64,000 nt of DNA from Candidatus Bipolaricaulis sibiricus (GTDB lineage Bacteria > Bipolaricaulota > Bipolaricaulia > Bipolaricaulales > Bipolaricaulaceae), in assembly GCA_004102645.1 (NCBI GenBank), contig CP034928.1, positions 1,106,153 to 1,170,152 of the forward strand, in the 5' to 3' direction. The position numbers and the translations under genes were made by a program. The notes beneath the pieces are model-generated. The model had not been told where the DNA came from. It searched no databases and saw only the letters and a program-made list of their open reading frames with translations. Shown one piece after another: positions 14,009 through 64,000 of the stretch. Each line of letters begins with the position of its first letter. Within the stretch, counting starts at the first letter, position 1.

Positions 14009-14019
14009 CGGTCCTCCCT

Positions 14020-35231: not shown

Positions 35232-35271
35232 GGGGCAGAGTGTACGGAGCGGGCGGGCGCGAGGCCCGGCC

Positions 35272-41676: not shown

Positions 41677-41851
41677 GGTGGCCAAGGATAGCCGCTTCCC
41701 GCCGCTGGCGACAGAACGACGGGCCGACCCGCCCGAGGTCCCCCCGACGGAATCACGGGCCACAGATGACGCCTCACGGGCAGCAGTCCACGGACAACGG
41801 ACTCCGGACAACGTAGCAGGATCGCAGCCGCCGCCCCGCGCCCGCGGGCCT

Positions 41852-45125: not shown

Positions 45126-47840
45126 CTAGATTTCCGCCCAGTCGCGGCCGGTCTTGACCTCGACCGCGAGGGGCACACGAAGGTCAGCCACGCGCTCCAT
45201 GATCGCCTTGACCTCGCGCGCCGCTCGGTCGGCGTCCTGTTCGTCGGCCTCGAACACGAGCTCGTCGTGGATCTGGAGGATCATCTCCGCCGGAAGCTCG
45301 CCCGCCCGCCACGCCGCGTGAAGACGGAGCATGGCGAGCTTGATGAGGTCCGCCGCCGACCCCTGAATCGGGGTGTTGATCGCGTTCCGCTCCTCGTACC
45401 CGCCCGCACCGGCCAGCGGGAGCGGCTCCCCCTTGAGGCTCACCGGCCGCCGCCGGCCGAGGAGGGTCCGCGCGTACCCCGTCTTCCGCGCCTCGGCGAC
45501 GAGCTGCTCGAGAAACGGGCCGACCTTGGGGTAGGCCGCGAAGAACCGGTCGATGTGCCCCTTCGCCTCGGCCTGGGGGATCCCGAGGTCGCGCGCGAGG
45601 CCGTACGGGCTGATCCCGTACAGGATCCCGAAGTTGACCCGTTTGGCGATCGTCCGCATCCTCCCGTCCACCTGCTCCGGCGGGACGTCGAACAGGGTCG
45701 CCGCCGTGCGTCGGTGGAGGTCCTCGCCGCCCGCGAACGCCGCAATCAGGTTCTCGTCCCCAGAGAGGTGGGCGAGGACGCGAAGCTCGATCTGGGAGTA
45801 ATCGGCCCCGAGGAGAACCCGGCCCGGAGGCGCGACAAACGCCCGCCGGATGTCCACCCCCGCCTCGTGGGCGGCGGGGATGTTCTGGAGGTTTGGCTCG
45901 GAGGACGACAGGCGGCCGGTGGCGGTCCCGGTCTGGTTCCACGAGGTGTGGACCCGCCCGGTGCGGGGATGGACGTACGCCGGCAGCTTCTCGATGTACG
46001 TGTTGCGGAGCTTCTCGAGCTCGCGGTACGCGGCGAGCTTGCCCGGGAACTCGTGGCGCCCAGCGAGCTCGCGGAGGACGAACGCGTCGGTGGCAGGCCC
46101 GGTCTTCCGCCTGCCGAGCACGGGAAGTTTCAGTTTCCCGTACAGGATCTCCCGCACCTGGGGGGTGGAGTTGGGGTTGAACGGCCCGCCCGCAAGGGCG
46201 AACAGCTCCTCGCGAAGCTGGGCGATGAGGATCTCGAGCTCCTTCCCTTGTTCGCGGAGGGCGTCCACGTCGAGGAGGACCCCCCGTCGTTCCATCGTCC
46301 GCAGCACCTCGATGAGCGGGAGCTCGACCTCGGTGAACAGCCTCGTCAGCCCTGCCGCGTCGAGCTGGGCGGTGAGGCCCGGGCGAAGCCGGCACACGAC
46401 CGCTGCATCCTCGCCGGCGTAGCGGGCGGCGCGGTCCACCGGCACCTCGGCGATCCCCTTCTCTCCACCGGTCGCGAGGAGCTCCTTGTAGGTCTGGACC
46501 CGGATCCCGAGCTCGGAGCGGGCGATCGCGTCCAGCCCGTGGGCCGGCGCGTCGGGGTAGAGGAGCCAGTGGGCGATCATCGCGTCGAACGCGACCCCGC
46601 GGACCTCGATCCCGTACGAGGCGAGGACCTGGAGGTCGTACTTCAGGTTCTGGCCGAGGACCCGTGGCCGCTCGCCTGCGAGGAGGGGCCGTAGCGCGTC
46701 GAGGACTTGCCCCACCGGGAGCTGGGCCGGGGCACCGGGGTAGGTGTGCCCCACCGGGATGTACCACGCCCGATCGGGTTCCACGGCGAGGGCGATCCCC
46801 ACGATCTCCGCCGTGAGGGGGTCCGTGCTTGTCGTCTCGAGGTCGAGCGCGAACTCCTCCGCCGCGCCCAGGGCGCGGATCACCGCCGCAAGCTCGTCCT
46901 TGGTCGTGACGACCGTGCACGGGCCCTCGGGCTCCCGCGGCCGGTCGAGGACCAGCTCAGCGAGCACCGTGCGGAACTCGAGGCCCTCGAGGACGGACCT
47001 CAATCGATCCGGGTCGAGGTCCCGTGGCGCGCAGTCGGCCACCGAAAGCGGGAGAGGCACCTTGCGCAGGGCCACAAGCTCGCGGGATAGGAGCGCGTCC
47101 TCGCGGTGGGCCGCGAGCGCATTCGCCACGCGCTTGTTCCGGATCCGATCCGTTGCCGCAAGTACGGCGTCGAGGGAGCCGTGCTCAGCGAGGAGCTCGC
47201 GGGCCGTCTTCTCGCCGATCCCCTTCACCCCGGGGACGTTGTCCGAGGCGTCCCCTTCCAGGGCAAGGAGGTCGCCAACCCGTTCGGGTGGCACACCGAA
47301 CTTCTCCTCGACACCGTCACGATCGAGAACGGTGAGCCGGTCCGCCAGCCCGCGGCCGGGGCGGAGGAGCTTGACCCGTTCCGACACAAGCTGGGCCATG
47401 TCCTTGTCCCCGGTGAAGAGGAGGACGGGGATCCCCGCCCGCTCCGCCTCCCGAGCCAGGGTGGCCATCACGTCGTCCGCCTCGTAGCCCGGGATGACGA
47501 GGGACGGGATCCCCAGCGCGTCCAGGACCTCCGGGACCCGGGGGATCTGCGCGACGAGCGGCTCGGGGATCGGCTTCCGCGTCGCCTTGTACCCCGCGTA
47601 CGCCTCGTGACGCACCGTGACCCCGCCAGCGTCGAGGGCCACCGCCACGTAGCGCGAGGGGTACTCGCGCAGGACCATGAGGAGGGTCCGCACGAACCCG
47701 TACAGCGCGCCCACCGGCTCCCCACGGGACGTGGTGAGGTCGGGGACGGCGAAGAACGACCGGTAGAGGGCAGAGTGGCCGTCCACAAGAAGGAGCCGCT
47801 CCGGAACCTCCGAGATCCCCAGCGCTTCGTGGATCGTCAC
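45126..47840 (-). CDS. polA: DNA polymerase I with 5'-3' and 3'-5' exonuclease domains
   Basis: LLVDG, YEADD, GIGEKTA; exo motifs DLETT, NLKYD, YAGED; pol motifs DYSQIELR, KRVNFGILYG, HDE. Confidence 0.98.
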   Translation of the reverse strand: MTIHEALGISEVPERLLLVDGHSALYRSFFAVPDLTTSRGEPVGALYGFVRTLLMVLREYPSRYVAVALDAGGVTVRHEAYAGYKATRKPIPEPLVAQIPRVPEVLDALGIPSLVIPGYEADDVMATLAREAERAGIPVLLFTGDKDMAQLVSERVKLLRPGRGLADRLTVLDRDGVEEKFGVPPERVGDLLALEGDASDNVPGVKGIGEKTARELLAEHGSLDAVLAATDRIRNKRVANALAAHREDALLSRELVALRKVPLPLSVADCAPRDLDPDRLRSVLEGLEFRTVLAELVLDRPREPEGPCTVVTTKDELAAVIRALGAAEEFALDLETTSTDPLTAEIVGIALAVEPDRAWYIPVGHTYPGAPAQLPVGQVLDALRPLLAGERPRVLGQNLKYDLQVLASYGIEVRGVAFDAMIAHWLLYPDAPAHGLDAIARSELGIRVQTYKELLATGGEKGIAEVPVDRAARYAGEDAAVVCRLRPGLTAQLDAAGLTRLFTEVELPLIEVLRTMERRGVLLDVDALREQGKELEILIAQLREELFALAGGPFNPNSTPQVREILYGKLKLPVLGRRKTGPATDAFVLRELAGRHEFPGKLAAYRELEKLRNTYIEKLPAYVHPRTGRVHTSWNQTGTATGRLSSSEPNLQNIPAAHEAGVDIRRAFVAPPGRVLLGADYSQIELRVLAHLSGDENLIAAFAGGEDLHRRTAATLFDVPPEQVDGRMRTIAKRVNFGILYGISPYGLARDLGIPQAEAKGHIDRFFAAYPKVGPFLEQLVAEARKTGYARTLLGRRRPVSLKGEPLPLAGAGGYEERNAINTPIQGSAADLIKLAMLRLHAAWRAGELPAEMILQIHDELVFEADEQDADRAAREVKAIMERVADLRVPLAVEVKTGRDWAEI

Positions 47841-47977
47841 GCTAGACCTGGAACAGGTCAACCCGTCTCACCGCCGAGCAACGCAGAGAACGCGGACGAG
47901 CCGGATCACTCTCCGATCCACGTTCCGGATCGGCCTCGATCCTGCTCCCGTCAACCCCCACGCGTCACCGGTCACGG

Positions 47978-49618: not shown

Positions 49619-51085
49619 GTGTTCCGGGGGGCGGGCGGGACCGTGCTCTCGCGGGTAGTCGGCCTCCTCCGCGACGCAGCGATTGCCTATGCGTTCGGGG
49701 CATCCGCCGGGTACGACGCGTTCCTTGTGGCATTGTACCTCCCCCAGGCCCTGCGCCAGGTCCTGGGCGAAGGCGGTCTTGCTGCGGCATTCCTGCCCGT
49801 GTACGCCCGAGCACGGGAAGACGGGCAAGGTGACGAGCTGGCCCGCTCGGCGTTCGTCTACCTCCTGTTCGTCCTCCCCCCGATCTGCGCATTGGGTGCC
49901 CTGTTCGCCCCCTTCTACCTGCCCGTGCTGGCTGCCGGGTTCGCCCCGGAGACGATGGCCCAGAGCGTGGCCCTTGCCCGGTGGCTGTTCCCGCTCATCG
50001 GGTTCATCTCCATCGCCGCTCTCGCGGGGGGCATCCTCAACGCCCACGGCCGGTTCTTCCTGCCCGCGCTTGCCCCGGCCGTGCTCAACGTGGGGATGAT
50101 CGTCGGCGCGACCCTATTGGCCCGTCTCGCCCGCCCGCCGATTCTCGGCCTCGCCCTCGGTGCGCTCGTCGGTGGTGCGGGGATGGCGATCCTCCTCCTC
50201 CCCCCGCTCCGCTCCACCCTGCGCGGGCCATGGCGCGTGTGGCCTCCCCACCCCGCGCTCGGCGAGGTGGCGTGGCGGCTCGTCCCGTCCCTCGGTGCGT
50301 TGGTCGTCGCCGAGCTGAACACGCTCGTCGACAACCGGCTCGCTTCCTACCTCGCGCCCGGCTCGATCGCCACCCTTCAGTACGCGATGCGGTTGTTCCA
50401 GCTGCCGTTGGGAATCCTCGCCGTCTCGGTCACCACGGCCGCCCTGCCGCGACTCGCCCAGCTCGTTGCCCAACGTGATGAGATTGGGTTTCGCCGCGCC
50501 CTCAGTCGGGGGTTCCTCACCACCGGGACGCTCATCCTGCCAGCTCTTGCTGGACTCCTCATCCTGGGGACGCCGATCCTCACCGTGCTGTTCGAGCGTG
50601 GGGCGTTCACGGCCACCGACACGGGGCGTGCCTACGCCGCCCTCGCTGGGTACCTGAGCGGGCTGTGGGCGTATGCCCTTGTGTACCTCCTGTCGCGGGC
50701 GTGGTTTGCCCTCGGGCGGCCCCTTCTCCCCGTTCTCGCCGGGGCAGGTGCCCTCGCCGTGAACATCGGCCTCAACCTGTGGTGGGTGCAGATCTGGGGT
50801 ACGTTCGGACTTGCCCTGGCCACGGGTGTGGCAGGCTGGGTGAACGCCGTCCTCCTCGCGGTGCCTCTCTGGCGACGGCACCGGGGCTGGATCTCCGTTC
50901 ACAGCACCGTGCGGCTGTTCGCTGCCGTAGGCGGGATGTGCGGTGGTCTCCTCCTCGTCCGCCCCGCGCTCTCCCCCCTGGGGCCGTGGGTCGAAGTGGC
51001 CGTGGGCGTACCGTTGGGTGTCGTCCTCTACGCAGGTCTTCTGTGGACCCTCGGGATCAGACGGTTCTTGGCGGGCGAACGATGA
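49619..51085 (+). CDS. murJ: Lipid II flippase MurJ (MviN)
   Basis: LSRVVGLLRD, EGGLAAAFLP, RLFQLPLG and LFERGAF. The start is uncertain. Confidence 0.94.
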   Translation: MFRGAGGTVLSRVVGLLRDAAIAYAFGASAGYDAFLVALYLPQALRQVLGEGGLAAAFLPVYARAREDGQGDELARSAFVYLLFVLPPICALGALFAPFYLPVLAAGFAPETMAQSVALARWLFPLIGFISIAALAGGILNAHGRFFLPALAPAVLNVGMIVGATLLARLARPPILGLALGALVGGAGMAILLLPPLRSTLRGPWRVWPPHPALGEVAWRLVPSLGALVVAELNTLVDNRLASYLAPGSIATLQYAMRLFQLPLGILAVSVTTAALPRLAQLVAQRDEIGFRRALSRGFLTTGTLILPALAGLLILGTPILTVLFERGAFTATDTGRAYAALAGYLSGLWAYALVYLLSRAWFALGRPLLPVLAGAGALAVNIGLNLWWVQIWGTFGLALATGVAGWVNAVLLAVPLWRRHRGWISVHSTVRLFAAVGGMCGGLLLVRPALSPLGPWVEVAVGVPLGVVLYAGLLWTLGIRRFLAGER

Positions 51086-51965: not shown

Positions 51966-52442
51966 TTACTTCCGCGTTTTCTTGCGGCCCCGCGTGGGAG
52001 TGGAGCGAGCTGCCGGCGTCCGTTTCTTGGCCGAGGAACGCGATTGGTTTACGACATCGGCAAGCGTGCTGTTGGCTAGAGCCTGGGTGAACTTGGCCTC
52101 GACTCCCTTCCAGAACGGCCCCACAGGGCAATCCTCTCCCGTCACGAACCCGCCGCCGCGCTGCCGGCCGTAGACAAGGTTCGGAGTCTCCGACTCCAGA
52201 GCGTGGATGAGCTGACCGATCTTGATCGCCTTCGGAGCATGGGCAAGTCGGTACCCGCCCGTGCGCCCCTTCTGAGCCGTGACGAGGCCAGCCCGCCGGA
52301 GATCGAGGAGGATTTTGCGCACGAAGGCTTCGGGCACACGATACCCGTCAGCGATGTCCCGCGCCGAGTGGTAGCCGTCCTCGCGGGTCGCAAGCTCGTA
52401 CAGAACACACACTCCGTACCCCAAGCGCTTGCTGGTAATCAT
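51966..52442 (-). CDS. Rrf2-family transcriptional regulator
   Basis: KILLDLRRAGLV...GRTGGYRLA...IGQLIHALE. Confidence 0.93.
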   Translation of the reverse strand: MITSKRLGYGVCVLYELATREDGYHSARDIADGYRVPEAFVRKILLDLRRAGLVTAQKGRTGGYRLAHAPKAIKIGQLIHALESETPNLVYGRQRGGGFVTGEDCPVGPFWKGVEAKFTQALANSTLADVVNQSRSSAKKRTPAARSTPTRGRKKTRK

Positions 52443-52453
52443 AGCGATCTAGT

Positions 52454-53632
52454 TTATACGCTGCGGCCCCGCCGCGCCACAAACTCCTCTGCCCTCACCC
52501 GCGCCCAGTTGTCTGCGGAAAGCACGGTCTGCACGTCGACAGCAGGGTTTGGCGCGTGGGCCGCGACGACCGCTGCGATGCCCTCGGCGATGTCGGTGAA
52601 GGCGATCTTCCCGCTCAGGAACGCCTCCACAAGGACCTCGTCCGCAGCATTGGCTACCGCCGGGGCAGTCCCGCCCCTCTCGCCGGCCTCGACCACGGCC
52701 CGAAACGCTGGGTAGCGCTGGGGAGCGAGTTCCTCGAGAACGAGGTTCATCCCAGCCAGAGGCAGCCGAGGGGCAGGCCGGGGCAGGCGATCGGGATGGG
52801 TGAGCGCAGCCTGGATCGGGATCCGCATGTCCGGATACGCAACCTGGGCGAGAACCGTCCCGTCCACGAGCTCGACCAGCGCGTGCACACAGGCCTGGGG
52901 GTGAATGAGGACCCCTATCTTCGACCATGAAAGCGCGAACAGATGATGGGCCTCGATCACCTCGAATGCCTTGTTGGCGAGCGTTGCCGAGTCGACACTG
53001 ATCCGCCTTCCCATCGACCACACCGGGTGGGCGAGCGCCTCGGCGGGCGTCACCCGACAGAGCTCAGCAGCGGACCGATCTCGAAACGGCCCTCCGGATG
53101 CGGTGATCCAAGCGCGGTCGACGTGGCGCCCGTCCACTCCAGTCAGGAGTTGAAACAGCGCTGCGTGCTCAGAGTCCACCGGAAGGATCTGATCCGGACG
53201 GCGCCGCGCACCCAGGACCAGCTCACCCCCAATGACGAGCGACTCCTTGTTCGCGAGGGCGACCGTCTTGCCGGCCTCCAGCGCCGCCAGGGTAGGCGCC
53301 AGACCCACCGCACCCACCACTGCGTTCAGGACGAGATCCACATCGGGATGCGAAGCGAGGTACGCCAGTCCGTCTGCCCCGTGGACGACCTCCGTCTCCC
53401 GCGGGAGCAGCTTCCGCACGAGGTCGGCCTCGCGCGGCGCCGCCACCGCGACCCGCGGGACCGCGAACTCCCGCGCCACAGCGGCCACGCCGTCCACGTT
53501 CCGACCCGCCGCGAGGGCAGCCACCTCCACCGCACGCCCCGCACGGCGAAGGTCGCGAATCACTGCGAGGGCTTGGGTTCCGATTGAGCCCGTCGCCCCG
53601 AGGATCGCCACCCGGGTCGCGGCCGCCGTCAT
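52454..53632 (-). CDS. dxr: 1-deoxy-D-xylulose-5-phosphate reductoisomerase
   Basis: ILGATGSIG, LANKESLV, PVDSEH, HPVWSMG...DSATLANK and NAADEV. Confidence 0.97.
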   Translation of the reverse strand: MTAAATRVAILGATGSIGTQALAVIRDLRRAGRAVEVAALAAGRNVDGVAAVAREFAVPRVAVAAPREADLVRKLLPRETEVVHGADGLAYLASHPDVDLVLNAVVGAVGLAPTLAALEAGKTVALANKESLVIGGELVLGARRRPDQILPVDSEHAALFQLLTGVDGRHVDRAWITASGGPFRDRSAAELCRVTPAEALAHPVWSMGRRISVDSATLANKAFEVIEAHHLFALSWSKIGVLIHPQACVHALVELVDGTVLAQVAYPDMRIPIQAALTHPDRLPRPAPRLPLAGMNLVLEELAPQRYPAFRAVVEAGERGGTAPAVANAADEVLVEAFLSGKIAFTDIAEGIAAVVAAHAPNPAVDVQTVLSADNWARVRAEEFVARRGRSV

Positions 53633-55473
53633 CCCGTCGGTTGAAGAGCGAGATCGGAGAGGAGCGCGTCGATCTCCTCCCCATCCAGCGACTCGCGGCG
53701 CAGGAGCTCCTGGGCGATCCGGTCGAGCGCAGCCCGGTTGCGGGCAAGGAGGTCCTTCGCCCGGGCGTAGGCCTGGGACAGAATCGCCCGGACTTCCCGA
53801 TCCACCGTTGACGCCAGCTCCTCGGAGTGGTCCTCGCCCCGCACGATCTCCTCGCCGAGGAAGACGTTGACCCGATCGCCCGCCACGTTGACCGGCCCCA
53901 GAGCCTCGGACATCCCCCACTCGACGACCATTCGCTTCGCGATCTCGGTGGCTCGCTTCAGGTCGTCCGAGGCCCCCGTCGTTTGCTCGCCGAACACGAT
54001 CTCGTCGGCCGCCCTTCCGCCGAGGATCATCGCAAGATGATCGAGCAGAAGCTGACGAGACCATAGCCGTCGGTCTTCGGGAAGGGGCTGGGCCAACCCG
54101 AGCGCCCCCGTCCCTCGCGGGACGATCGTGACCTTGTGAATCGGACCCGTTTCGGGGAGGAGCTTCATCATCAGCGCGTGCCCCGCTTCGTGATGGGCGA
54201 TTCGGAGCCGCTCATCATCGCGAATGTACATCCCCTTGCGGGCAAGACCGGTGAGAACGCGGTCCAGCGCTTCCTCGAAGTCCTCGAGCTCAACGCGGTC
54301 CTTGTTCCGCCGCGCGGCGAGGAGCGCCGCCTCGTTGCAGAGGTTCTCGAGATCGGCCCCCACGAACCCCGGAGTTCGCCTCGCGAGGAGCGCGAGATCC
54401 ACGTCGGTCGCCAGCTTCTTCTCGCGGATGTGAATCCTGAGAATCGCCTCTCTTCCGTGCAGGTCAGGAGACGGAACGGCGATCTTCCGATCGAACCGGC
54501 CGGGGCGAAGGAGTGCCAAATCCAGCACGTCGGGTCGGTTCGTGGCTGCAAGCACGATCACGCCGGCGTTCCCTTCGAACCCGTCCATCTCGGAGAGAAG
54601 CTGGTTCAGTGTCTGCTCTCGCTCGTCGTGGCCTCCACCCAGCCCGGCGCCGCGCTTTCGCCCTACCGCGTCGATCTCGTCGATGAACACGATGCAGGGG
54701 GAGCTGGCCTTCGCCTTCTGGAACATGTCTCTCACCCGCGCCGCGCCGACCCCGACGAACATCTCCACGAAGTCGGACCCTGAAATGGAGAAGAACGGCA
54801 CCCCGGCCTCACCGGCGATCGCCCGCGCCAGGAGCGTCTTGCCCGTTCCGGGTGGGCCCACGAGAAGGATCCCCTTCGGGATCTTGGCTCCCAGTCGCAC
54901 GAACCGCCCCGGGTCCCGCAGGTAGTCCACGATCTCCCGGACCTCGTCCAGGACCTCATCGATCCCAGCCACGTCCTTGAACGTGACCTTGGTGAACTCC
55001 TTGGTCACGAGCTTGGCCCGCGACTGACCGAACGTGAACGCGTTCCCGCCCTGCATCCGGCGCATCATGTACATGAGAAGAAGCGGGAACAGGATGAGCA
55101 AGAGCGCGAACGGCAGCAGTGAGACGAGGAACTGGGTGACCCCGCTTGGCGACTGAAACCGGTACACCACACCTCGAGCATCCATCTCTTTCGCCAGCTC
55201 CGCGTAGAGGGGAGACCCCTCGGGAGGGCCCTGAACGACGAAGTTGCGGATCTCCCCTGCCCGCAGCACGCCCTCGATCCGGGAACCCTGGATTACGACC
55301 TCATCCACGTTCCCTGTTTGAAGCTGGACGAGCAGATCCGAGTACGTCAGCTCGACGGTGCGTCGCTGCCCCGGCCAGAACGCCTGCATGACCAACAACC
55401 CGAGCATCACCAGGATGACCAGGAACGTGATGCTGCGCAGCGTGCGGGGCGGCTGAATCGGACGACGGTCCAT
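53629..55473 (-). CDS. ftsH: ATP-dependent zinc metalloprotease FtsH
   Basis: Two TM segments, [14 protein letters not shown], second region of homology RPGRFDR and HEAGH. Confidence 0.98.
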
Positions 55474-55552
55474 ACCCATGCATTGTAGCCCCCCCATCCT
55501 GTGGATCAACGATCCTGGCTCGATCGAGACTCGGTGGCTACAATGAGTCGCT

Positions 55553-57709
55553 GTGGCCGGGCTTCTGCGATTTCTCGTCGTTGTACTCTGTCTGTTCTCC
55601 GCCGCCGCTGTGGCTGCGCCAGAGAAACTCGACCCATTTCTGCGTCTGCTGCTCGCGGCGCACGACGGGGAAGGCCCCGTCTCCCTTTTCACCCCGGAGG
55701 CCCTGCCGAATCTGATCGCGTTGGGGGAAGCTCCTCACGCTCCGCTCGACGCGTGGCGGGCAGGCGTTCCCATCCAGGTATTCGTCCTGACGGCAGACCC
55801 CGGCGCCGCACGGGCACTTCCCCTGTTCCGGCCCCACCAGGTACTGGGCCGGCTCGCAACTGGTGAAGTGGCTCTCGCAGATCTCACGGCGCTCGCTGCC
55901 GACCCGCAGGTAGTGTACGTCGAGGCCAGTCGACCGGTGTACCCGACGCTCGATCGCTCCGTGCCCGAGACGGGGGCGCCCGCTCTGTGGTACGCAACAC
56001 CCGGTGCGACCGGTCGGGGGGTGCTCGTCGGCATCGTGGACTCGGGCATCGACATTCTCCACCGCGACTTCCGTGTGGACCGAGACGGCGATGGGATCGA
56101 AGAGGGGACGCGGATCTTCTACCTGTGGGATCAGACAGGGGTCGGAGCCACGGGGTTCCCGTACTGGTGGGGGGACGTGCTCGCCGAGACCTACTATGGA
56201 CGAGCATTCTCCCGCGATGAACTCGAGCGGGCGATCGCTAGCGGGTTCGCCCCCACCCTCGACACCCACGGCCACGGCACCCACGTCGCTGGCATCGCGG
56301 CGGGCGATGGCTCGGCTTCGCCCTTAGGGCTGCGAGGAGTTGCACCCGAGGCTGAGCTCGTGGTGGTGAAGACCACGTTCTATCAGAACACGGTGGTGGA
56401 TGGGGTGAGGTTTGTGTTCGAAGCCGCGCAGGCCCGTGGAATGCCCGCCGTGGTGAACCTGTCGCTCGGCAGCCACAGCGGCCCGCACGACGGCACCTCG
56501 TTGTTCGAGCAGATGCTCGACGCCATGCTCGATCGGCCTGGCAGGGCAATCGTAGTTGCCGCTGGGAACGAAGGGGACCGACGGATCCACGTTGCCGGAG
56601 ACGTGCGAGCTCCCACCACGTGGCACCTCGAAGTAGAGAAGAGCACTGTGTCTGTTCAGCTTTGGCACATGGGAACAGCTAGCTTCTCCCTGGAAGTCCG
56701 GACCCCAGGCGGTGAGTCCGTGAGCGTCCTTCCGTCGAGCCAGCGTTGGACATCCACCGCCTCCGGCGGAGTGTGGCTCGACAACACGTCCCTCCCCGAC
56801 CCTCGCAACTTGGGCCGCTACATCTACATCGCTCTGAGTGAGGTCACTCCGGGGACAACGTGGGCCCTCACGCTCACCCCGGTCATCGGCGGGGGCCGCG
56901 TGGACGGGTGGGTGGAGAACCCCTCGGCGGGTCAGTTCAGAGAAGGCGACTCGGACTACACGATCAGCGAGCCGGGGAACGCCCAACGCGTGATCACGGT
57001 CGGTGCCTACGTCACGAAGAACCGCTGGACCGCGGTCACGGGGGAGCAGACGGGGGATGGAATCGTAGGAGCGCTCGCGTCGTTCTCCTCGCGCGGGCCA
57101 ACGCGAGACGGTCGTCTCAAACCCGATCTTGCGGCACCAGGAGCGTGGATCGCGTCGGCCCGCTCTGTCAGCGCTTCACCTGGGGGGTGGCTCACCCTCC
57201 CCGGGGGTGAGTACTCGATGCTGCTTGGGACGAGCATGGCCGCGCCCCACGTGGCGGGAGCCGTGGCCCTGCTGTTCTCTCGTCGGCCCAACCTCACCTG
57301 GTCCGAGGTCAAGGATGCCCTTGTTGCTGGAGCAAGGGCTGACTCCCACGTTGGGATGGCACCAAACCGCTCCTGGGGCGCAGGGAAGCTCGATATCGCC
57401 CGCAGCGCGGCAGCCATCGGGGGCACTGCGCCAGCGGGAAGACCCTCCCTCCAGATCACAGCCAACCCCGTGTCCCGTGAGGCGGTGTTCGCTTACCGAT
57501 GCCCTCCGGAGACCCTGTGGGCAAGCCTCCACGTCTACGACCTTGCCGGACGATTGCTCTTCACCCAGCTGCTGGCCCTCCCCTCGGGCGAGGCGCGGTG
57601 GCCTCTGTCCACCGCCTCGGGGGAGCGAGTTGCGAGCGGGCTCTACCTCGCCGTGGTCGTAACAGATCGAGCGCGTTCTGAGACTGTCCGGGTGGTGGTC
57701 CAGCGATGA
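55553..57709 (+). CDS. Secreted S8 subtilase with a T9SS type-A-like C-terminal domain
   Basis: Signal peptide; catalytic triad VDSGID, HGTHVAGIA, GTSMAAPHVAG; C-terminus NPVS...VYDLAGR...ASGLY...RVVVQR. Confidence 0.92.
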   Translation: MAGLLRFLVVVLCLFSAAAVAAPEKLDPFLRLLLAAHDGEGPVSLFTPEALPNLIALGEAPHAPLDAWRAGVPIQVFVLTADPGAARALPLFRPHQVLGRLATGEVALADLTALAADPQVVYVEASRPVYPTLDRSVPETGAPALWYATPGATGRGVLVGIVDSGIDILHRDFRVDRDGDGIEEGTRIFYLWDQTGVGATGFPYWWGDVLAETYYGRAFSRDELERAIASGFAPTLDTHGHGTHVAGIAAGDGSASPLGLRGVAPEAELVVVKTTFYQNTVVDGVRFVFEAAQARGMPAVVNLSLGSHSGPHDGTSLFEQMLDAMLDRPGRAIVVAAGNEGDRRIHVAGDVRAPTTWHLEVEKSTVSVQLWHMGTASFSLEVRTPGGESVSVLPSSQRWTSTASGGVWLDNTSLPDPRNLGRYIYIALSEVTPGTTWALTLTPVIGGGRVDGWVENPSAGQFREGDSDYTISEPGNAQRVITVGAYVTKNRWTAVTGEQTGDGIVGALASFSSRGPTRDGRLKPDLAAPGAWIASARSVSASPGGWLTLPGGEYSMLLGTSMAAPHVAGAVALLFSRRPNLTWSEVKDALVAGARADSHVGMAPNRSWGAGKLDIARSAAAIGGTAPAGRPSLQITANPVSREAVFAYRCPPETLWASLHVYDLAGRLLFTQLLALPSGEARWPLSTASGERVASGLYLAVVVTDRARSETVRVVVQR

Positions 57710-58512
57710 AGACCTGCGCGACAGCACTCTGCATCCTCGCGGCAGCCCTGACCAGCGCCGCTGCGGGGTTCATCGGCGGGGACATCCTGTTCGACCTCGG
57801 GGCAGGAGCGCGCAGCGCCGGAATGGGGGGAGCCGGGATCGCTCTCCCCGCGAGCGACGCCTTGTTCGTCAACCCGGCGGGTCTCCCGTGGGTCGAGGGC
57901 ATCCAGGTTGTCTCCACCTATGGGAACGTGTTCGACGTCGCCGACTTCGGCGCGCTGTCCGTTGGGATGCCGGGGCTTGCGGCGGCCGGGCTCGTGCTAG
58001 ACGCAGGGACGATTGGGCCTGCCCTCGCCTATCGAACCACCGGTGCCGTGGTGGGAGCCGGCGTGCGCCTGGGACCGCTGGGGGCTGGCGTGCGGGCACG
58101 CCTGGTGCGCCCAGTGGCTCCTGTTCCCGGCGCGGGCGGAGCCCTCGACTTCGCCCTCCTCTGGCGCGGCCCCGTGCAGGTGGGAGCGGTGTGGCGTGCT
58201 ATCCTTTCCCAAGCCCCTGTTGCAGCTGAGTCCTGGCCTGCCGAACTTGAAGTTGGCCTCGCGCTGCCGGTTCGGGGTTTCGGCCTTAGCGCGTCGCTCG
58301 CCCTCGATGTGACCGGCGTGGGTACCGACCCCTCATTCGCCCTTGGCGGCGAGGTGGGTGCCGATTGGCTCTTCATCCGTGCCGGGTACGGCCCCGCCGG
58401 TGTCGCCATCGGCGGCACGGTGCGGTGGAGGCCGTTCGCCCTTGACTGGGCGGTTCTCCTGCACCCGGTTCTACCGGCCACGTATCGCGTATCCTTTGCA
58501 GTGAGACTATGA
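57706..58512 (+). CDS. PorV/PorQ-like outer-membrane beta-barrel protein (copy 1)
   Basis: Signal peptide, GARSAGMGGAGIA...NPAGL, alternating beta-strand pattern and C-terminal YRVSFAVRL. Confidence 0.7.
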   Translation: MKTCATALCILAAALTSAAAGFIGGDILFDLGAGARSAGMGGAGIALPASDALFVNPAGLPWVEGIQVVSTYGNVFDVADFGALSVGMPGLAAAGLVLDAGTIGPALAYRTTGAVVGAGVRLGPLGAGVRARLVRPVAPVPGAGGALDFALLWRGPVQVGAVWRAILSQAPVAAESWPAELEVGLALPVRGFGLSASLALDVTGVGTDPSFALGGEVGADWLFIRAGYGPAGVAIGGTVRWRPFALDWAVLLHPVLPATYRVSFAVRL

Positions 58513-61500
58513 TGAGAAGATACCTACTCGTTCTCCTCGTCGGCGGCGGCATCGCGTTGGCCCAGCAGACCCCCAGCTTCAACCTAACAGTGAGTGGGGA
58601 GAAGACGTGGACCATCTGGCTCGGGTTGGGGTCGGCGAGCCTGCTTGCGGACCAGGACCTGACCCCGGGCCAACCCGCCCTCACCCAGACCCTGCGCGCG
58701 ATGATCGAGGGCAAGGCCCTCGGGTTCATCACCCTCCGGGCGAGCTTCAACGATCAGCTCGACGTCGGGTTCCAGGACTTCTTGCTCACCGTGGATCGCA
58801 CTCCGTGGACGGGAGAACTCGGCCGGTTCGTCGTCGGGGCGGAGGGAGAGGGCCTCGGGGTGTACAACAAGCGCGTCCTAGGCGCCCGGGTCGGCTACGC
58901 CAGCGATGGTGTGGCGCTGAACGCCGTCGTGACGCGGCTCGAGGGCATCTCCGAGTCGCGCACGTTCCGCGGGGAGGAAGGCCGCGGGGAGGCCCTATTC
59001 ACGGTCAACGATCCCGACGAGCCGTGGCGCGAGGCGGCCTACCTCCGCTCCGTGGAGGGCCTCGCCTACTGGCCGCTCCGGATTCAGTTCGTGGAAGGAC
59101 TGACGAACGTCCAGCTTCGCCTGAGCGGAACCTCCGCCCTGTGGACGTTCCTCGCCGAGTGGGGCCTCGACTTCATCCGGGACGACCTGGCCGCCGAGCT
59201 GGTGACCCCGCTGACAGCGGCAGAGTACGTCGTGCTGCGCAACGAGCGCGACGATCTTGCCCTGCGCGTCGCGCCGTCCACCCTGGCGCGGCGGCGAGTC
59301 CAGCAGGCGATCGACGCCTACAACGCACGTCTTGGGCTTACGGGCAAAGATCGCAAGACCTACCCGTTCGTCGAAGCTAGCGAGCTCGAAAACCGCTTCC
59401 TGGCGGGGTTCACCGGGTTTCTCGCCGTCCTCGTCGACGACGACGCCCACCCGTTCTCCGACCTCGCGCGCCGCCGCTACCTGTTCCTCGGCGAGCGCGA
59501 CGTGATCGAGGGGTCGGTCGAGGTGTGGATCCGCCGGCCGGGAGAGACCGACTACCGTCCGTCGACGGATCCCGAGCTTGGAGAGTACACCTGGACGCTG
59601 CTGCCTGCCGACGGGACACTGCGCATTTCGTTCCCCTCAGCGTTCTTCACAGGGGGCGCAGTGCGCGTCGCCTTTGCCTACCGTCGGGAGGGGACGGCTT
59701 TCTCCCTGGGCCCCTCGCTTGTCCCAGGCTCAGAGCGGGTGACGCTCAACGGGCGCCGGCTCGCCCGGGGCACCGACTACAGCCTGGACTACGCGTCTGG
59801 CGTCCTGCTCCTGTTCACCCCCCTCGGGCCCGACGACGAGCTACGGGTCGACTTCGAACGCCAGCGCGGCGGGCTGGGCGCCGTCACCGACTACGAGCGG
59901 AACCTGTTCGGGCTTACCCTCAGCGTGCCCGGCTGGGACGGGTTCAAGCTCGCCCTGTACCGGGCGATGGACTCCGGCTCGCCCCGACCCACCACGCACA
60001 CGATGCCCAACACCCACAGCGTGGCCGCCGTGTCCGCGTCGGGCAAGGTCGCGGGGTGGACCTACAGCCTGAGCCTCGCTGGATCGGAGAACATCTTTCC
60101 CTTCGACGACAACGCCCGCGTACCCTCTGCGAATCGAGTTCGCGCAATCGTCAGTGCTCAGGCTCCTGATGGGGAGTACGTGATCCTCGGGCACCACAAC
60201 GGTCTCACCGTGTACAAGGACGGGACGTTCGCCGCCTACGGGCCCGCCCACGGCCTGGGGGGTCGGTCGGTTCATGCCCTGCTCGCTCTCCCCGGGCAAC
60301 TGCTCGTCGGCACAGATGCGGGGCTGACCGTGGTCCGCCTGGCCGAGGCGACGCCGTTCGATCGCGTGAGGAGTTGGGTCAGGGTCACCGGGACAGACCA
60401 ACTCCCGGGAACCGAAGTTCTGGCCCTGACCCGCGCCGACGGCCGGGTGTACCTCGCCACTGACACCGCCCTCGTCTCGTTCCGGGCCGCCGATAGCGAG
60501 GACCCCAGCAAGTGGGATCGAGCGGACCTGCCCACCAACGGCGGCCGACCGACAGCCCTGCTGGGGACGGACGGGCGGCTGTACCTCGGCACGACCAGCG
60601 GGCTCTACCTGCGCACCGACGGGGAGTGGATGCTCGTCGTCGACGCCGCGGGGATGATCCACGACCTCCTCGCCCGCGGCCAGGACGTGTACGTGGCGTC
60701 CGAGCACGGCATTCGGATCCTCCGCGGCGCGAGCGGTGTGGGGTGGGCAGCGTTCGGGACGGCCGTGTACGGTCTGGCGCTGCGGGACGGCATCCTGTGG
60801 TACGCGGCCGAGGACGGCCTGTGGCAAGAGAACCAGATCGGCCCTGTCGTCAGCGGGCCCGTGACCGCGGTCGGGGCCGGGCAAGGGGCGGTGTGGGCGG
60901 CCGCCAAGGCCAGCGCGGACTTCCGGCTCGACCTGTGGCGGGTGATCGACAGCGCGGAGAGGCTCCCCCCGACCCGGACCAAGCTCGACGGCCGCGACCT
61001 CGGGCGGTTCCAGGACATCCCAGCGGCAGACCACACCCGGTACGGGACCTCGGCCAGCCTCGCCCTGACCCAGACCTTCGGCGACTGGCAGTGGGAGCTG
61101 CGCGCGGCGAGCCGGCTGCCGGGGTACGAGGAGATCGGGCGCCCTGGGCGCTCCGACAGCCACGGGCTGAGCCTTGCCGCCCGCTACACCGGCGGCGGCC
61201 CGACGAGCGTCGACGTCCGGGCGAGGTGGGATCTGACCAACCTCGCGACCAAGCCCCGCGGCCGACTCGCCGGCAGCGTGGACTGGCGCTGGTCCGACGG
61301 CCCCACCGCCACTGTGTCCATCACCCCGACCCTCACCGGTGACGGGCTGGTGTCGTTCCACCAGCTGGAGCTGGGGTGGCAGGCCGGTCTGTCGAACAAG
61401 ACCCAGGCGTGGTCGTGGGGGGTGACCACCAGCGGTACGTTCCGCTCCCCCGCCCTCGTCGCCTCCGGTCAGCTCGGGGCGACCTTGTCCATCGTTCCGG

Positions 61501-62375
61501 TGCCGGGGTGGACGATGGACCTGAGCTGGACCCGGCCGTTCCGTACAACGGGCGCCCCGGGCAGCGAGACGTTCCGCGCCGTCCTACGGTGGGCTGCCGA
61601 GACCGACCGCGCGTCGCTCAATGCAAGCTGGCAGGAGGACTGGCGACACCATCTCACCGCCGGCACGTGGCGGGACGAGCGCACCCTCCAGGGCGATGCG
61701 CGATGGAAGGCATGGTCGATCCCCGATGGCGGCACTCTCACAACGCGCCTGTCGACGTCAGTCCGACTCAGTCCCACTGAGCAGCGCTGGACCTCCCGTG
61801 TGGAGGCCGACATCGCTCGTTCGCCGAACGTGATCCGGCTTCGGGTCACCCTCGGGCAGGGTCTTCTGCCGCTCACCGAGCGGTCCGATCGAACCCTCGG
61901 TCTCTCTGTGTATTGGGAGACCACGGCCTGGGAGGGGGTGCGGGCCTCCCTGCAATGGGACAGGTCGTGGCTCACCCTCTCCCATCCTCGCTACCCAACG
62001 CAGACCACGGACAAGGAAGAGGTTACAGCCCGCGCAACGTGGGAACCGAAGGGTGCCACCTGGCGAGACGCCCTCACCCTGACCTGGAAACCCCGTGCCA
62101 AGGAGGCAGCCCTCTCCAATCGGCTGACATGGGCCCTCGGAGCAGCCTCCCTGTCGGTAGACACGTCCGCCACCCTCAAGGGTGAGGCGCTTGATGTGAA
62201 GACCACGGCCCAGCTCGGTCTACCTCTGGACACCATCCTCACCGCCCTCGGAGCGAGGCCGATCGGCGACACATGGGGGATCAGCGCCGAGATGGGTCAC
62301 ATCGTGTCCCTCAAGGGGAGAGCCGAGCCCAGACATGCCCTGTTCATGGGCGTGACTCTCGCTGTCCGGTTCTGA
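58509..62375 (+). CDS. Large secreted beta-rich protein with a SprA-like motif and internal beta-propeller
   Basis: Signal peptide; LVPGSERVTLNGRRLARGTDYSLDYASG; propeller repeats (LLVGTDAGL, LYLGTTSGLY, LWYAAEDGLW); C-terminal strands ending in F. Confidence 0.7.
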   Translation: MMRRYLLVLLVGGGIALAQQTPSFNLTVSGEKTWTIWLGLGSASLLADQDLTPGQPALTQTLRAMIEGKALGFITLRASFNDQLDVGFQDFLLTVDRTPWTGELGRFVVGAEGEGLGVYNKRVLGARVGYASDGVALNAVVTRLEGISESRTFRGEEGRGEALFTVNDPDEPWREAAYLRSVEGLAYWPLRIQFVEGLTNVQLRLSGTSALWTFLAEWGLDFIRDDLAAELVTPLTAAEYVVLRNERDDLALRVAPSTLARRRVQQAIDAYNARLGLTGKDRKTYPFVEASELENRFLAGFTGFLAVLVDDDAHPFSDLARRRYLFLGERDVIEGSVEVWIRRPGETDYRPSTDPELGEYTWTLLPADGTLRISFPSAFFTGGAVRVAFAYRREGTAFSLGPSLVPGSERVTLNGRRLARGTDYSLDYASGVLLLFTPLGPDDELRVDFERQRGGLGAVTDYERNLFGLTLSVPGWDGFKLALYRAMDSGSPRPTTHTMPNTHSVAAVSASGKVAGWTYSLSLAGSENIFPFDDNARVPSANRVRAIVSAQAPDGEYVILGHHNGLTVYKDGTFAAYGPAHGLGGRSVHALLALPGQLLVGTDAGLTVVRLAEATPFDRVRSWVRVTGTDQLPGTEVLALTRADGRVYLATDTALVSFRAADSEDPSKWDRADLPTNGGRPTALLGTDGRLYLGTTSGLYLRTDGEWMLVVDAAGMIHDLLARGQDVYVASEHGIRILRGASGVGWAAFGTAVYGLALRDGILWYAAEDGLWQENQIGPVVSGPVTAVGAGQGAVWAAAKASADFRLDLWRVIDSAERLPPTRTKLDGRDLGRFQDIPAADHTRYGTSASLALTQTFGDWQWELRAASRLPGYEEIGRPGRSDSHGLSLAARYTGGGPTSVDVRARWDLTNLATKPRGRLAGSVDWRWSDGPTATVSITPTLTGDGLVSFHQLELGWQAGLSNKTQAWSWGVTTSGTFRSPALVASGQLGATLSIVPVPGWTMDLSWTRPFRTTGAPGSETFRAVLRWAAETDRASLNASWQEDWRHHLTAGTWRDERTLQGDARWKAWSIPDGGTLTTRLSTSVRLSPTEQRWTSRVEADIARSPNVIRLRVTLGQGLLPLTERSDRTLGLSVYWETTAWEGVRASLQWDRSWLTLSHPRYPTQTTDKEEVTARATWEPKGATWRDALTLTWKPRAKEAALSNRLTWALGAASLSVDTSATLKGEALDVKTTAQLGLPLDTILTALGARPIGDTWGISAEMGHIVSLKGRAEPRHALFMGVTLAVRF

Positions 62376-62429
62376 GAGGGAGACGTCTCAGAACAACACG
62401 CGGGGCTGACCTGCCGACGGTCAGCCCCG
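62369..62429. terminator. Tandem hairpins between convergent operons (bidirectional terminator candidate)
   Basis: GTTCTGAGA/TCTCAGAAC (62369-62377/62386-62394) and CGGGGCTGACC/GGTCAGCCCCG (62401-62411/62419-62429). Confidence 0.65.
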
Positions 62430-62436
62430 TGCGTCT

Positions 62437-63288
62437 CTAGAACCGAGCGCCGAACCCGAACCGGTGCGAGGCTGACAGGACCGGATGCGTGAGCAGCGCG
62501 TAGTCGAGCACGAACATTCCCCATCGCGCCCCAAGACCGAGCGCCCACTGCAGGCCCGCCTGGAAGCGCAGACCAGCGCGAATCTCGAACGCCCCGAACG
62601 CAGACCATCCGACCCCGATTGCCGTGTACTCCGCGGTGAGGTCCATCGCGAGGGTCAACCCAAGGGGATTCACCAGCGCCACACCCGCCGCGAGATCCGT
62701 TGTCCAACCATCGCTCGTCTCCCCAACCGTGGGTCCGAACCCAAACTCTCGCAGTGCCAGGCCTACTCGGAGCGGCCCCACCGGGGTGCCCAACCGCCCG
62801 AGGAGCCCCACGTCGAGCGCAAACCCGCTCCCCGACGCGTCAGCGATGCGCACGTTGTGGTACTTGATCGCCACCCCACCCGCTGCCGGGAAGGGAAACA
62901 CGCGTAGCATCGTCAGATCGAACGCGGCACCCAGCACAGCCGCCAGGTGCGAGAAGGCGAGCGGATCGCCCTCTGGATCCGTGATCCCGCCGACCCCGAG
63001 GTACCCCACCCCCGCACCGAAGTTCGGGACCGCACCCCCGATCCACGTCACCGAGTACAGCCCGAGCACGCTCGACAGGCTCGAGTCGGCGCGCGTCCCG
63101 GTTGACCACGCCAGCCCGGCCGGGTTGGTGAGGAGGGCCTCCGTGCCCTCGGCGATGGCGATGTACGCCCCGCCGAACCCCATCGCCCGAACCCCCAGAC
63201 CCACGTCGAACGGGTTCGGCAAGCCCTGGCCCAGGGCCAGCGTCCCGGCCAAGACCACGCCCAACAGCGTGAACGCTCGTCGCATCAT
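62437..63288 (-). CDS. PorV/PorQ-like outer-membrane beta-barrel protein (copy 2)
   Basis: GAGGAGG RBS; signal peptide; GVRAMGFGGAYIA...NPAGL; GFALDVG; C-terminal HRFGFGARF. Confidence 0.72.
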   Translation of the reverse strand: MMRRAFTLLGVVLAGTLALGQGLPNPFDVGLGVRAMGFGGAYIAIAEGTEALLTNPAGLAWSTGTRADSSLSSVLGLYSVTWIGGAVPNFGAGVGYLGVGGITDPEGDPLAFSHLAAVLGAAFDLTMLRVFPFPAAGGVAIKYHNVRIADASGSGFALDVGLLGRLGTPVGPLRVGLALREFGFGPTVGETSDGWTTDLAAGVALVNPLGLTLAMDLTAEYTAIGVGWSAFGAFEIRAGLRFQAGLQWALGLGARWGMFVLDYALLTHPVLSASHRFGFGARF

Positions 63289-63295
63289 CCCCTCC

Positions 63296-64000
63296 TCAGC
63301 GCACCACAAGGATCTTCCCGACTTCTGAAGAGATGGTCCCACCGTCCACGCGGGCTGTGACAAGGAAGAAGTACAGCCCGTCGGCGATCGCGCGACCATT
63401 CCCATCCCTGAGATCCCACGTGAACTGCGTGCCCGTCACATCGCTCCGCCGCACCTCGCGGCCCAGCATATCGAAGATCTGGATCTGGGCCTGAGCTGCG
63501 CCGGCGGGCAGGACGAGCTGAATCCGGCACTGGGTCCGCGCAGGGTTGTCCAGCAGCCGGGTACCAATGCCGCCGCCAACCGGCAACACCGTGACGTCTC
63601 GGGCGAACCACTCTCCCCACCCCCCGGCGTCGCGGGCCCGTGCCTGAACCCGGAACACACCGCTCGCGGCGAAGGTATGGGTCTTGACGTTCGTCTCGCT
63701 CGGCACAACCGTGTCATCGCCCAACTTCCACTCATAGCCCGTGATGGGGTCTCCGTCCGGATCGGCGGCCGTGGCCGTGAACGTGATCGCCTGCCCCACC
63801 TGAGGATCGGCGGGGTTCGGCGTGATCGCGCTCACCACCGGCCGTCGGTTCACAGGAGTGGCGGTCACCGTGACCACCTTCTCCTTCGTGCCGACCTCAC
63901 CCCGGCTGTTCGTGACCGAAAGGACCACGGTGTACGTGCCCGCCGCAGCGTAGGTGTGCGTCGGATTCTGCACCGTCGACGTCCCGCCGTCCCCAAACGC
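63296..64000 (-). CDS. PKD-domain protein with a T9SS type-A-like C-terminal domain, 5'-truncated by the window edge
   Basis: The frame stays open to the edge (FGDGGTSTVQNPTHTY, PKD). A second PKD-like repeat has YEWKLGD. C-terminus NPAR...IFDMLGR...WDLRDGNG...DGLY...KILVVR. Confidence 0.9.
   Translation of the reverse strand, partial: AFGDGGTSTVQNPTHTYAAAGTYTVVLSVTNSRGEVGTKEKVVTVTATPVNRRPVVSAITPNPADPQVGQAITFTATAADPDGDPITGYEWKLGDDTVVPSETNVKTHTFAASGVFRVQARARDAGGWGEWFARDVTVLPVGGGIGTRLLDNPARTQCRIQLVLPAGAAQAQIQIFDMLGREVRRSDVTGTQFTWDLRDGNGRAIADGLYFFLVTARVDGGTISSEVGKILVVR

Follow-up and report, generated by a model that had tools for sequence, protein, structure and literature searches.

A half-length SprA relative with PorV-like and sorting-domain neighbours in Candidatus Bipolaricaulis sibiricus: probable translocon of a compact module resembling type IX secretion

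A giant barrel gene and its domains

We analyzed a stretch of 64,000 nucleotides from Candidatus Bipolaricaulis sibiricus (contig CP034928.1, positions 1,106,153 to 1,170,152; G+C 65–73%), hereafter the window, and in particular a gene at 58509..62375 on the + strand, whose product is related to SprA, the T9SS (type IX secretion system) translocon. The gene is an open reading frame (ORF) of 1288 aa with an ATG start and a clear coding signal (third-position G+C 0.86), and its assignment as the gene of a SprA-like giant outer-membrane barrel draws on profile searches, on hhalign comparisons, and on AlphaFold 2 (AF2) models compared with known structures through Foldseek. Two such models were available, model 1 covering aa 89–1288 and model 2 covering aa 19–1218, each built with 43 homologues.

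The protein begins with a predicted Sec signal peptide, read from the sequence (58509..58562, + strand; aa 1–18, MMRRYLLVLLVGGGIALA, followed by QQ), which peptide has no lipobox; the whole chain of 1288 aa contains no cysteine. Its C-terminus is ...GVTLAVRF, whose last residue, F1288, is invariant in 44 homologues, as would be expected of a substrate of the beta-barrel assembly machinery. Past the signal peptide, nine long beta-strands (aa 25–165; 58581..59003, + strand), recognized by DSSP in model 2 and through the hhalign comparison with near-SprA proteins, carry the SprA-type motifs G-x-KT, ASFNDQ, YNK-x-LGAR, and RLEGISES. These strands are followed by an inserted alpha/beta domain (aa 187–452; 59067..59864, + strand), supported by TIGR04189, by hhalign, and by an exhaustive profile search, which domain has its homologous counterpart in SprA at positions ~585–794 of TIGR04189 and contains the SprA motif at nt 59718–59864. 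Four further long strands (aa 463–529; 59895..60095, + strand; DSSP of both models), bearing a TMPN loop whose M499, P500, and N501 are invariant among the homologues, separate that domain from a second insert, a seven-bladed beta-propeller of the Reg_prop type placed in a loop of the barrel (aa 538–819; 60120..60965, + strand; DSSP, profile, Pfam, and Foldseek). A conserved linker, IDGRDLGRF..HTR (60966..61034, + strand; alignment and DSSP), in which G828, D830, F834, and D836 are near-invariant and which DSSP resolves into a short strand and a helix, then leads from the propeller to about 25 long antiparallel beta-strands (aa 843–1288; 61035..62372, + strand; DSSP, with a predicted local distance difference test, pLDDT, mostly >90) that end in an outer-membrane beta-signal.

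Sequence homology to SprA

The initial annotation of this DNA, made from the letters alone, had noted a SprA pattern in the segment 59718–59860, and that pattern proved to be real. The segment reads in frame LVPGSERVTLNGRRLARGTDYSLDYASGVLLLFTPLGPDDELRVDFE (aa 404–451), and aa 404–452 matched positions 604–654 of TIGR04189, the SprA/Sov family of NCBIfam, with an E-value of 5.5e-5. Furthermore, TIGR04189 was the top NCBIfam family in every one of the 18 diverse members of the protein's family that were tested (best E 3.3e-8), which unanimity argues that the hit is not due to chance. A Pfam scan of the whole SprA-like protein, for its part, found nothing.

An exhaustive search with a profile of aa 19–540 against 1.84 billion representative proteins returned 1515 matches at E<=1e-3, of which 375 reached E<=1e-10. 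The matches beyond the family itself, whose members span 1260–1490 aa, were proteins of 1500–2170 aa reached through profile positions ~300–520; among them, P0238 (2169 aa) and P0226 (1929 aa) were matched at E-values of about 1e-17 to 1e-18. On TIGR04189, whose curated cutoff is 200 bits, these two score 198 and 145 bits, respectively, and to judge from their sequences we regard both as SprA-type proteins despite those sub-cutoff scores. The relatives of P0238 come from 'candidate division FCPU426', and some of the remoter matches carry the SprA Pfam domain PF14349.

When the family was aligned by hhalign with 15 proteins of the P0238 type, the resulting probability was 97.6% with an E-value of 4.6e-12 over 442 columns, aa 24–504 of the family being placed on positions 416–948 of the near-SprA proteins; the motifs YNK-x-LGA(R/K) and (L/T)EG(I/T)SE(S/T) are common to both groups. 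Because that alignment covers aa 24–504, the homology spans the whole N-terminal third of the protein and extends beyond the motif of 32 aa: the N-terminal strands and the inserted domain following them are both homologous to those of SprA. The match stops before the propeller, an insert that did not appear in the near-SprA proteins of the alignment. The C-terminal strands gave no sequence signal. The profile evidence, together with the models considered below, indicates that the protein is a genuine, very divergent homologue of SprA/Sov; it scores below the 200 bits or more that define the TIGR04189 equivalog, and its relation to that family is one of homology at the superfamily level.

The SprA-related proteins P0148–P0238 form a graded series of lengths, from 1300 to 2170 aa, in metagenomic lineages, and some of them contain fibronectin type III inserts. 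Several of the SprA-related proteins gave weak matches, over the SprA-motif domain, to the phage distal-tail and tail-tube models TIGR02217 and NF052337, so that this domain may share its fold with phage tail proteins.

Structure models, barrel size, and topology

The two models had a pLDDT of 86.7 (model 1) and 85.8 (model 2), with predicted template-modelling scores (pTM) of 0.47 and 0.48, and the alpha/beta domain at aa ~187–452 was the region of lower confidence (pLDDT 46–80). The initial annotation had proposed a comparison of such models with the SprA structure, and had reckoned with the outcomes of a soluble or non-barrel protein, or of a SprA-like segment without a significant profile match. 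Instead, both models suggest a large outer-membrane beta-barrel, the segment has the family-wide match described above, and SprA chains occupied the first three places among the PDB structures in both Foldseek searches: 8GL6_A (1.6e-15), 8GL8_A (1.6e-14), and 6H3I_A (3.4e-13) with model 1, and again three SprA chains (2.3e-17, 1.1e-15, and 3.4e-15) with model 2. The leading match of another kind trailed the SprA E-values by 3 to 7 orders of magnitude in each search, SprA being followed by WD40 and sensor propellers at ~1e-10 and by LptD at 1e-8 or worse. Identification of the protein as LptD-like, usher-like, TonB-dependent, or SlpA-like was rejected, since the Foldseek E-values for those barrels were at least 7 orders worse than for SprA and their defining domains were absent.

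In the two overlapping models taken together, DSSP delimited 9 + 4 + 25, that is, about 38 long strands, in a protein for which Foldseek ranked SprA first. The SprA barrel has 36 strands (PMC10994853). The product would probably resemble SprA/Sov (TIGR04189, PF14349; 6H3I, 6H3J, 8GL6, 8GL8) in being a giant single-chain beta-barrel. That it is an SprA relative of about half the usual length carrying an inserted propeller had been rightly anticipated, as had the Trp/Thr-rich strands of the C-terminal part, whose last 450 aa contain 12.4% Thr and 5.8% Trp; the smaller barrel supposed at the same time, in contrast, does not agree with these strand counts, and the models place the barrel probably in the size class of SprA. 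The short chain, with 1288 aa versus about 2300–2500 for SprA, would probably be accounted for by a reduced cap, by loops that stay short on either face, and by the lack of the N-terminal periplasmic extension that SprA possesses. As to this last feature, the long strands begin with one at aa 25, 6 residues past the signal peptide, leaving no room for such an extension; and aa 24 of the family corresponds, in the hhalign comparison, to position 416 of the near-SprA proteins.

To place the two inserts with respect to the membrane, we assumed that both the N- and the C-terminus are periplasmic and read the strand parity from the DSSP strings. With 9 strands before the first insert, 13 before the propeller, and 25 after it, both inserts would be extracellular and the total number of strands even. 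In the N-terminal group, strands are joined by loops of 19, 8, and 11 residues on the face away from the N-terminus, versus turns of 2–4 residues on the N-terminal side (DSSP, model 2), and the TMPN-bearing loop between the second and the third of the middle strands has 12 residues, versus 5 and 2 in its neighbours. The alpha/beta domain and the propeller thus most likely form an extracellular cap, which placement depends on the count to the extent that a miscount of one strand would reverse the side.

The propeller

The blades that the initial annotation had likened to two-component-regulator propellers, in strings at aa 590–606, 683–700, and 755–772 (nt 60276–60824), belong to a set of 28 short strands that DSSP of model 1 arranges as 7 blades of 4 within aa 538–819. 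A profile of the propeller only matched, among PDB sequences, periplasmic sensor domains from hybrid two-component systems of Bacteroides, namely 3OTT (7e-13), 4A2L (1.6e-11), and 3V9F (3.6e-8), and the propeller-bearing model 1 matched 3OTT_B in Foldseek (4.5e-10). The propeller of the window, scanned alone, reached 20.8 bits on Pfam Reg_prop, versus a cutoff of 20.4, and Reg_prop (PF07494) was found in four of 12 family propellers (best 9e-8); PorZ_N_b_propeller was matched by one of those 12, at 2.9e-6. Seven blades and the G-T-x-x-G-L motif are shared with the sensor propellers (Reg_prop PF07494; 3OTT, 4A2L, 3V9F) and with those of PorZ (PF21544, 5M11). Those occur as tandem pairs in soluble sensors or surface proteins, whereas the present protein carries a single propeller in the loop of a membrane barrel. 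The propeller is kept in the remotest members of the family and in a homologue from a genome labelled Firmicutes. A specific PorZ identity, with only that one sequence of 12 matching the PorZ model, was set aside as a minority possibility.

The neighbouring genes

Upstream of the SprA-like gene lies a gene for an S8 subtilase of 718 aa (55553..57709, + strand; Pfam Peptidase_S8, 1.2e-44), with a signal peptide and with the Asp/His/Ser triad motifs VDSGID, HGTHVAG, and GTSMAAPHVAG intact. Its C-terminus is a sorting domain (CTD) like that of T9SS type A substrates (57422–57706, + strand), which domain by itself matched TIGR04183 at 1.7e-4 and, with 21.5 bits, remained just below the cutoff of 23. 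This CTD of ~90 aa stands at the extreme C-terminus and contains the motifs NP, (V/I)YD-x-x-G(R/K), and G(L/I)Y together with a terminal (V/I)V(V/I)-x-R strand, so that it has the length, position, and motifs of the type A CTD (TIGR04183/PF18962; also FlgD_ig PF13860); in a phylum without lipopolysaccharide (LPS), however, the anchoring of type A substrates to anionic LPS (A-LPS) is excluded. Among 26 C-termini of the S8 family, TIGR04183 was found in 24 (best 1.8e-9), the PorU C-terminus in 11 (best 1.8e-12), and the PorZ model in 15, and the CTD profile had as its best PDB match residues 1058–1152 of PorU (6ZA2_A, 4.7e-9), followed by PorZ (5M11, 3.7e-4) and the T9SS substrate 8GLJ_D (0.011). 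A Sec-dependent cargo with a C-terminal sorting domain, as is characteristic of a T9SS, is in consequence present at the locus; the subtilase itself is likely either such a cargo or a processing peptidase resembling PorU, as far as its sequence indicates.

Between the subtilase and the SprA-like gene, and overlapping each of them by ATGA, is the gene for a small outer-membrane barrel of the PorV/PorQ family, here PorVa (57706..58512, + strand; 268 aa; NF033709 PorV_fam, 4.3e-6), which by its family matches is likely a carrier protein, and to which the SprA-like gene is translationally coupled. In its own family, PorV_fam NF033709 was matched by 15 of 17 members (best 8e-11), PorVQ2 by four (1e-10), and PorQ by two (2e-6), and the top PDB match of the family profile was the PorV chain of the SprA complex, 6H3I_F, at a marginal 0.053. 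The PorV-family carrier expected of a T9SS was thus found, yet all its scores lie below the curated cutoffs.

Downstream and on the opposite strand, a second barrel of the same family, PorVb (62437..63405, - strand; NF033709, 9.1e-11 over aa 70–243), is 34% identical to PorVa (E 2e-22); a search of the PDB with the single PorVb sequence gave nothing useful. Its ORF of 322 aa includes an N-terminal extension of ~40 aa that is absent from all homologues, and translation probably begins instead at either Met codon of MMRRAF, near 63288. Both barrels share with PorV/PorQ (NF033709, NF033710, NF033711, NF052325) the N-terminal signature AR-x-x-GMGGAG...NPAGL, but are shorter than PorV, at 268–322 aa versus about 400, and their best score was 41.9 bits against a cutoff of 90. 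Each is paired with one cargo gene, like the PorP/SprF-like carriers of type B cargo (PMC12635249) and unlike the general carrier PorV. The partner of PorVb is a surface protein with PKD repeats, of which the window holds the C-terminal part with the same CTD (63299..64000, - strand; PKD, FlgD_ig/Por_Secre_tail; CTD hidden Markov model, 3.6e-24): the ORF, listed as 225 aa, is the C-terminal end of the gene, its frame being open to base 64000, and full-length homologues comprise 1004–1370 aa with 3–6 PKD domains and the same CTD. When the CTD model was run over the 64 kb of the window, just two ORFs were found to bear the domain, and both flank the SprA-like gene.

Conservation, distribution, and host

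Of the related loci, 58 extended far enough upstream to be compared, and 52 of these kept the order S8 subtilase, PorV-like barrel, SprA-like barrel, which persisted amid unrelated flanks at homologues of 32–43% identity. Of the six exceptions, five fall in a low-GC subclade and the sixth (L036) is a paralogue. In that subclade apparent rpoC- and priA-type genes, named from the ends of their sequences only, precede the homologue, and a nucleotidyl-transferase-like gene follows it.

A word-indexed search found 70 relatives of 1257–1404 aa, all annotated as 'hypothetical protein', the named ones being all from Candidatus Bipolaricaulota/Acetothermia; the wider family came to light only in the exhaustive profile search. 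When one genome was scanned for each species, 191 relatives emerged, of which the best 80 came nearly all from metagenome-assembled genomes (MAGs) of Bipolaricaulota, with a few under other labels. In Bipolaricaulota the gene is phylum-wide. A MAG labelled Firmicutes (L084, GCA_014896355.1) contains the same three-gene cassette, with a full-length SprA-like homologue of 1548 aa that includes the propeller (hhalign E 6e-89), a PorV-like protein of 305 aa (hhalign E 6e-18), and a protein of 3445 aa or more in which S8 and numerous PKD domains precede this CTD. The confinement to Bacteroidota and the Fibrobacteres–Chlorobi–Bacteroidetes (FCB) group by which T9SS is recognized was not found, since the named homologues are from Bipolaricaulota/Acetothermia plus that one Firmicutes-labelled MAG.

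Bipolaricaulota, which differ from the hosts of SprA in standing outside the FCB group and in lacking LPS, are regarded as atypical diderms of the Terrabacteria, their outer membrane standing off the cell at its poles (PMC10665443). Ran1, whose genome is closed, has no LPS genes, contains an outer-membrane assembly marker, and encodes a single extracellular protease, along with a dependence on external amino acids (PMC6092417); the subtilase is probably that single protease, which identity would give the module a nutritional role.

The sequence of the window recurs in metagenomes from the subsurface, groundwater, digesters, and bioreactors. Contigs from three groundwater metatranscriptome runs were 100% identical across the cassette, which coincidence weakly suggests that the cassette is expressed, a carry-over of DNA being possible. 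The metatranscriptome contigs matched the whole of 52000–64000 in the window, and a short unmatched end common to many of them, CTTTGTGTTTGA or the complement of it, resembles a library adapter.

A probable export module and its alternatives

We consider it probable that Bipolaricaulota possess a compact export module resembling T9SS and that the SprA-like protein is its translocon in the outer membrane, which reading is the most economical one because the translocon, the carrier, and the sorting signal, three independent parts of the T9SS outer-membrane core, are adjacent and co-conserved. As with the SprA of T9SS, a PorV-family protein and CTD-bearing secreted proteins are found alongside. 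In the canonical system the cargo enters SprA from the periplasm and its CTD binds the loops of PorV through the lateral opening, aided by the cap (PMC10994853, PMC12635249). In Bipolaricaulota, proteins with the CTD would reach the periplasm through the Sec system and fold there; the folded proteins would then enter the wide barrel from the periplasmic side; the CTD would be captured by the loops of a PorV-like carrier docked at the barrel, as in SprA–PorV; and cargo and carrier would exit laterally to the cell surface. For type B substrates, dedicated carriers stay bound and anchor the cargo (PMC12635249). Since each cargo gene at the present locus has its own carrier gene beside it and no LPS anchor exists, the cargo would probably be held at the surface on its carrier, following that type B logic, or else be released by proteolysis. 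The N-terminal periplasmic extension of SprA binds SkpA/SprE and so links the translocon to the energy chain (PMC10994853); without an extension for that coupling, the energisation of the module would be either absent or different, and the protein has no cysteines for the disulfide links of the energy chain.

T9SS has been described as confined to the Bacteroidota or the FCB superphylum (PMC10994853, PMC11205867) and as needing some twenty components, a proton-driven motor included (PMC10994853, PMC11205867, PMC12635249), and searches of a library of papers returned none that connects T9SS with Bipolaricaulota, Acetothermia, or other non-Bacteroidota phyla; what we describe is probably a stripped-down version of the system outside the group thought to confine it. 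More tentatively, and with considerable doubt, we would extend this proposal to a self-contained, motor-less 'mini-T9SS' of 3–5 adjacent genes, run by Bipolaricaulota and at least one other lineage outside the FCB group, in which an SprA-type pore of 36–38 strands would be capped in cis by the propeller and served by dedicated PorV-like carriers, the subtilase being at once the first cargo and the enzyme that processes the CTD. Under that extension the core of SprA, PorV, and CTD would be older or more mobile than the FCB group, and the motor, the ring, and the attachment to LPS would be later additions.

Several points weigh against an export module. The TIGR04189 match of the protein is local only, with 20.5 bits versus the curated cutoff of 200, and a whole-length profile run against PDB sequences found the sensor-kinase propeller and did not reach SprA. 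The pTM values of the models are just 0.47–0.48, each model being a partial chain, and the Foldseek TM-scores were 0.28–0.33 on the query with root-mean-square deviations >20 A; such values are to be expected when the target is twice as long and the models are partial, so that the resemblance to the SprA fold in these predictions rests on the Foldseek ranking and not on superposition. Barrel closure, strand number, lateral opening, and the side of the inserts are all inferred. In the canonical T9SS the ejection of carrier and cargo needs energy from the GldLM motor (PMC10994853, PMC12635249), and none of GldLM/PorLM, GldKN/PorKN, PorW/SprE, and PorG was seen in the 64-kb window or in the flanks of 6–10 kb around the homologues, the genes of a T9SS being normally scattered and the genomes as such not having been scanned for these components or for PorU and PorZ. 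In the low-GC subclade (51–54%; L063, L066, L072, L079, L080), moreover, the homologue of 1332–1368 aa lies away from the S8 and PorV-like genes; and all the evidence comes from MAGs, with their taxonomy taken at face value.

The same parts could also be assembled into a fused translocon and attachment complex, in which the subtilase would not mainly be cargo but a functional analogue of the PorU sortase, that is, a PorV-bound peptidase at the surface that cleaves off CTDs, the propeller in cis would play the role of PorZ, and the PKD protein, with further CTD proteins encoded elsewhere in the genome, would be the real cargo. This explanation, which we hold to be unlikely, finds support in the CTD of the S8 proteins, whose profile met in the PDB the CTD of PorU and then that of PorZ, and whose C-termini matched the PorU and PorZ models in 11 and 15 of 26 cases; but PorU is a cysteine peptidase of the C25 type and not a subtilase, so that the equivalence would be by analogy only, and the transfer to A-LPS that PorU and PorZ serve is impossible in Bipolaricaulota, which have no LPS (PMC6092417). 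The two propellers of PorZ are, in addition, of the same Reg_prop-like kind, with the one match of 2.9e-6 among the 12 family propellers pointing to PorZ; the other 11, however, had no PorZ Pfam match, and PorZ (5M11) lay outside the top 50 Foldseek matches of both models. The linkage of S8, PorV-like, and SprA-like genes is far stricter than would be expected of an ordinary cargo gene, and the presence of two PorV/PorQ paralogues recalls the attachment complex, with its pair of PorV and PorQ; against a sortase, the single extracellular protease of Ran1 and its need for amino acids fit a nutritional cargo (PMC6092417).

Two further explanations would dispense with export altogether. A barrel working inward, as a very large channel for the uptake of peptides or polymers made by the protease, where the propeller would form a ligand-binding lid outside the cell and the PorV-like proteins FadL-like accessory channels, would agree with the dependence on external amino acids and with the proposal that the outer membrane is a scaffold for nutrient transporters (PMC6092417), and the Reg_prop propellers of hybrid two-component sensors (3OTT, 4A2L) bind glycans; LptD, TonB-dependent transporters, and ushers also occur among the weaker Foldseek matches. 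We nevertheless judge such a channel very improbable: every specific similarity is to a T9SS export part (SprA, PorV/PorQ, type A CTD), the CTD that both flanking proteins bear signals secretion and has no part in uptake, and neither a TonB box nor a plug domain nor a SusD-like partner appeared in the Pfam and NCBIfam scans of the window. Less credible still is a structural protein of the outer membrane or sheath whose only tie to SprA is common descent, such as one that tethers or supports a detached, toga-like outer membrane. The atypical outer membrane of Bipolaricaulota, detached at the poles (PMC10665443), would suit that role, no motor is known for the module, and giant barrels of the Deinococcus SlpA type figure in the Foldseek list of model 2 (7ZGX_A, 9.9e-8; 8AE1_A, 2e-7); those matches, however, are some ten orders of magnitude weaker than those to SprA, the Pfam and NCBIfam scans revealed no SLH domain, coiled coil, or peptidoglycan-binding domain, and a structural role would leave unexplained why the gene is coupled in one operon with those for a PorV-like and a CTD protein. 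Since neither uptake nor a structural role accounts for the CTDs and the PorV-like partners, both are disfavoured.

If the locus does encode a T9SS-like export module, the principle of translocon, carrier, and CTD would range well outside the FCB group, into a deep-branching diderm lineage that lacks LPS; a much smaller natural translocon would become available for structural and mechanistic work, including the question of what the energy input is for; the passage of the single extracellular protease of Bipolaricaulota across the outer membrane would be explained; and several families of 'hypothetical proteins' would receive names.

Other genes in the window

Many relatives also have the pair ftsH–dxr, conserved on the upstream side of the cassette. 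The longest ORF of dxr (DXP reductoisomerase; 52454–54064, - strand) comprises 536 aa, of which the Arg/Gly-rich N-terminal ~145 aa run into the 3' end of ftsH (53629–55692); homologues have 390 aa, and the true start is probably an internal Met. A cluster on the - strand at 10594–17653 includes two NuoF-like flavoprotein subunits (Complex1_51K plus 4Fe-4S; 11919–13652 and 14020–15801), the large subunit of a [NiFe]-hydrogenase (16223–17653), and a beta-CASP/metallo-beta-lactamase RNase (10594–12069). Between 34035 and 51085 lie housekeeping genes, namely those for an M24 peptidase (34035–35516), an MgtC/DUF4010 protein (36486–37742), a pyruvate:ferredoxin oxidoreductase subunit (40546–41811), a DsbD-like membrane protein (41852–43360), DNA polymerase I (45126–47861), and MurJ (49619–51085).

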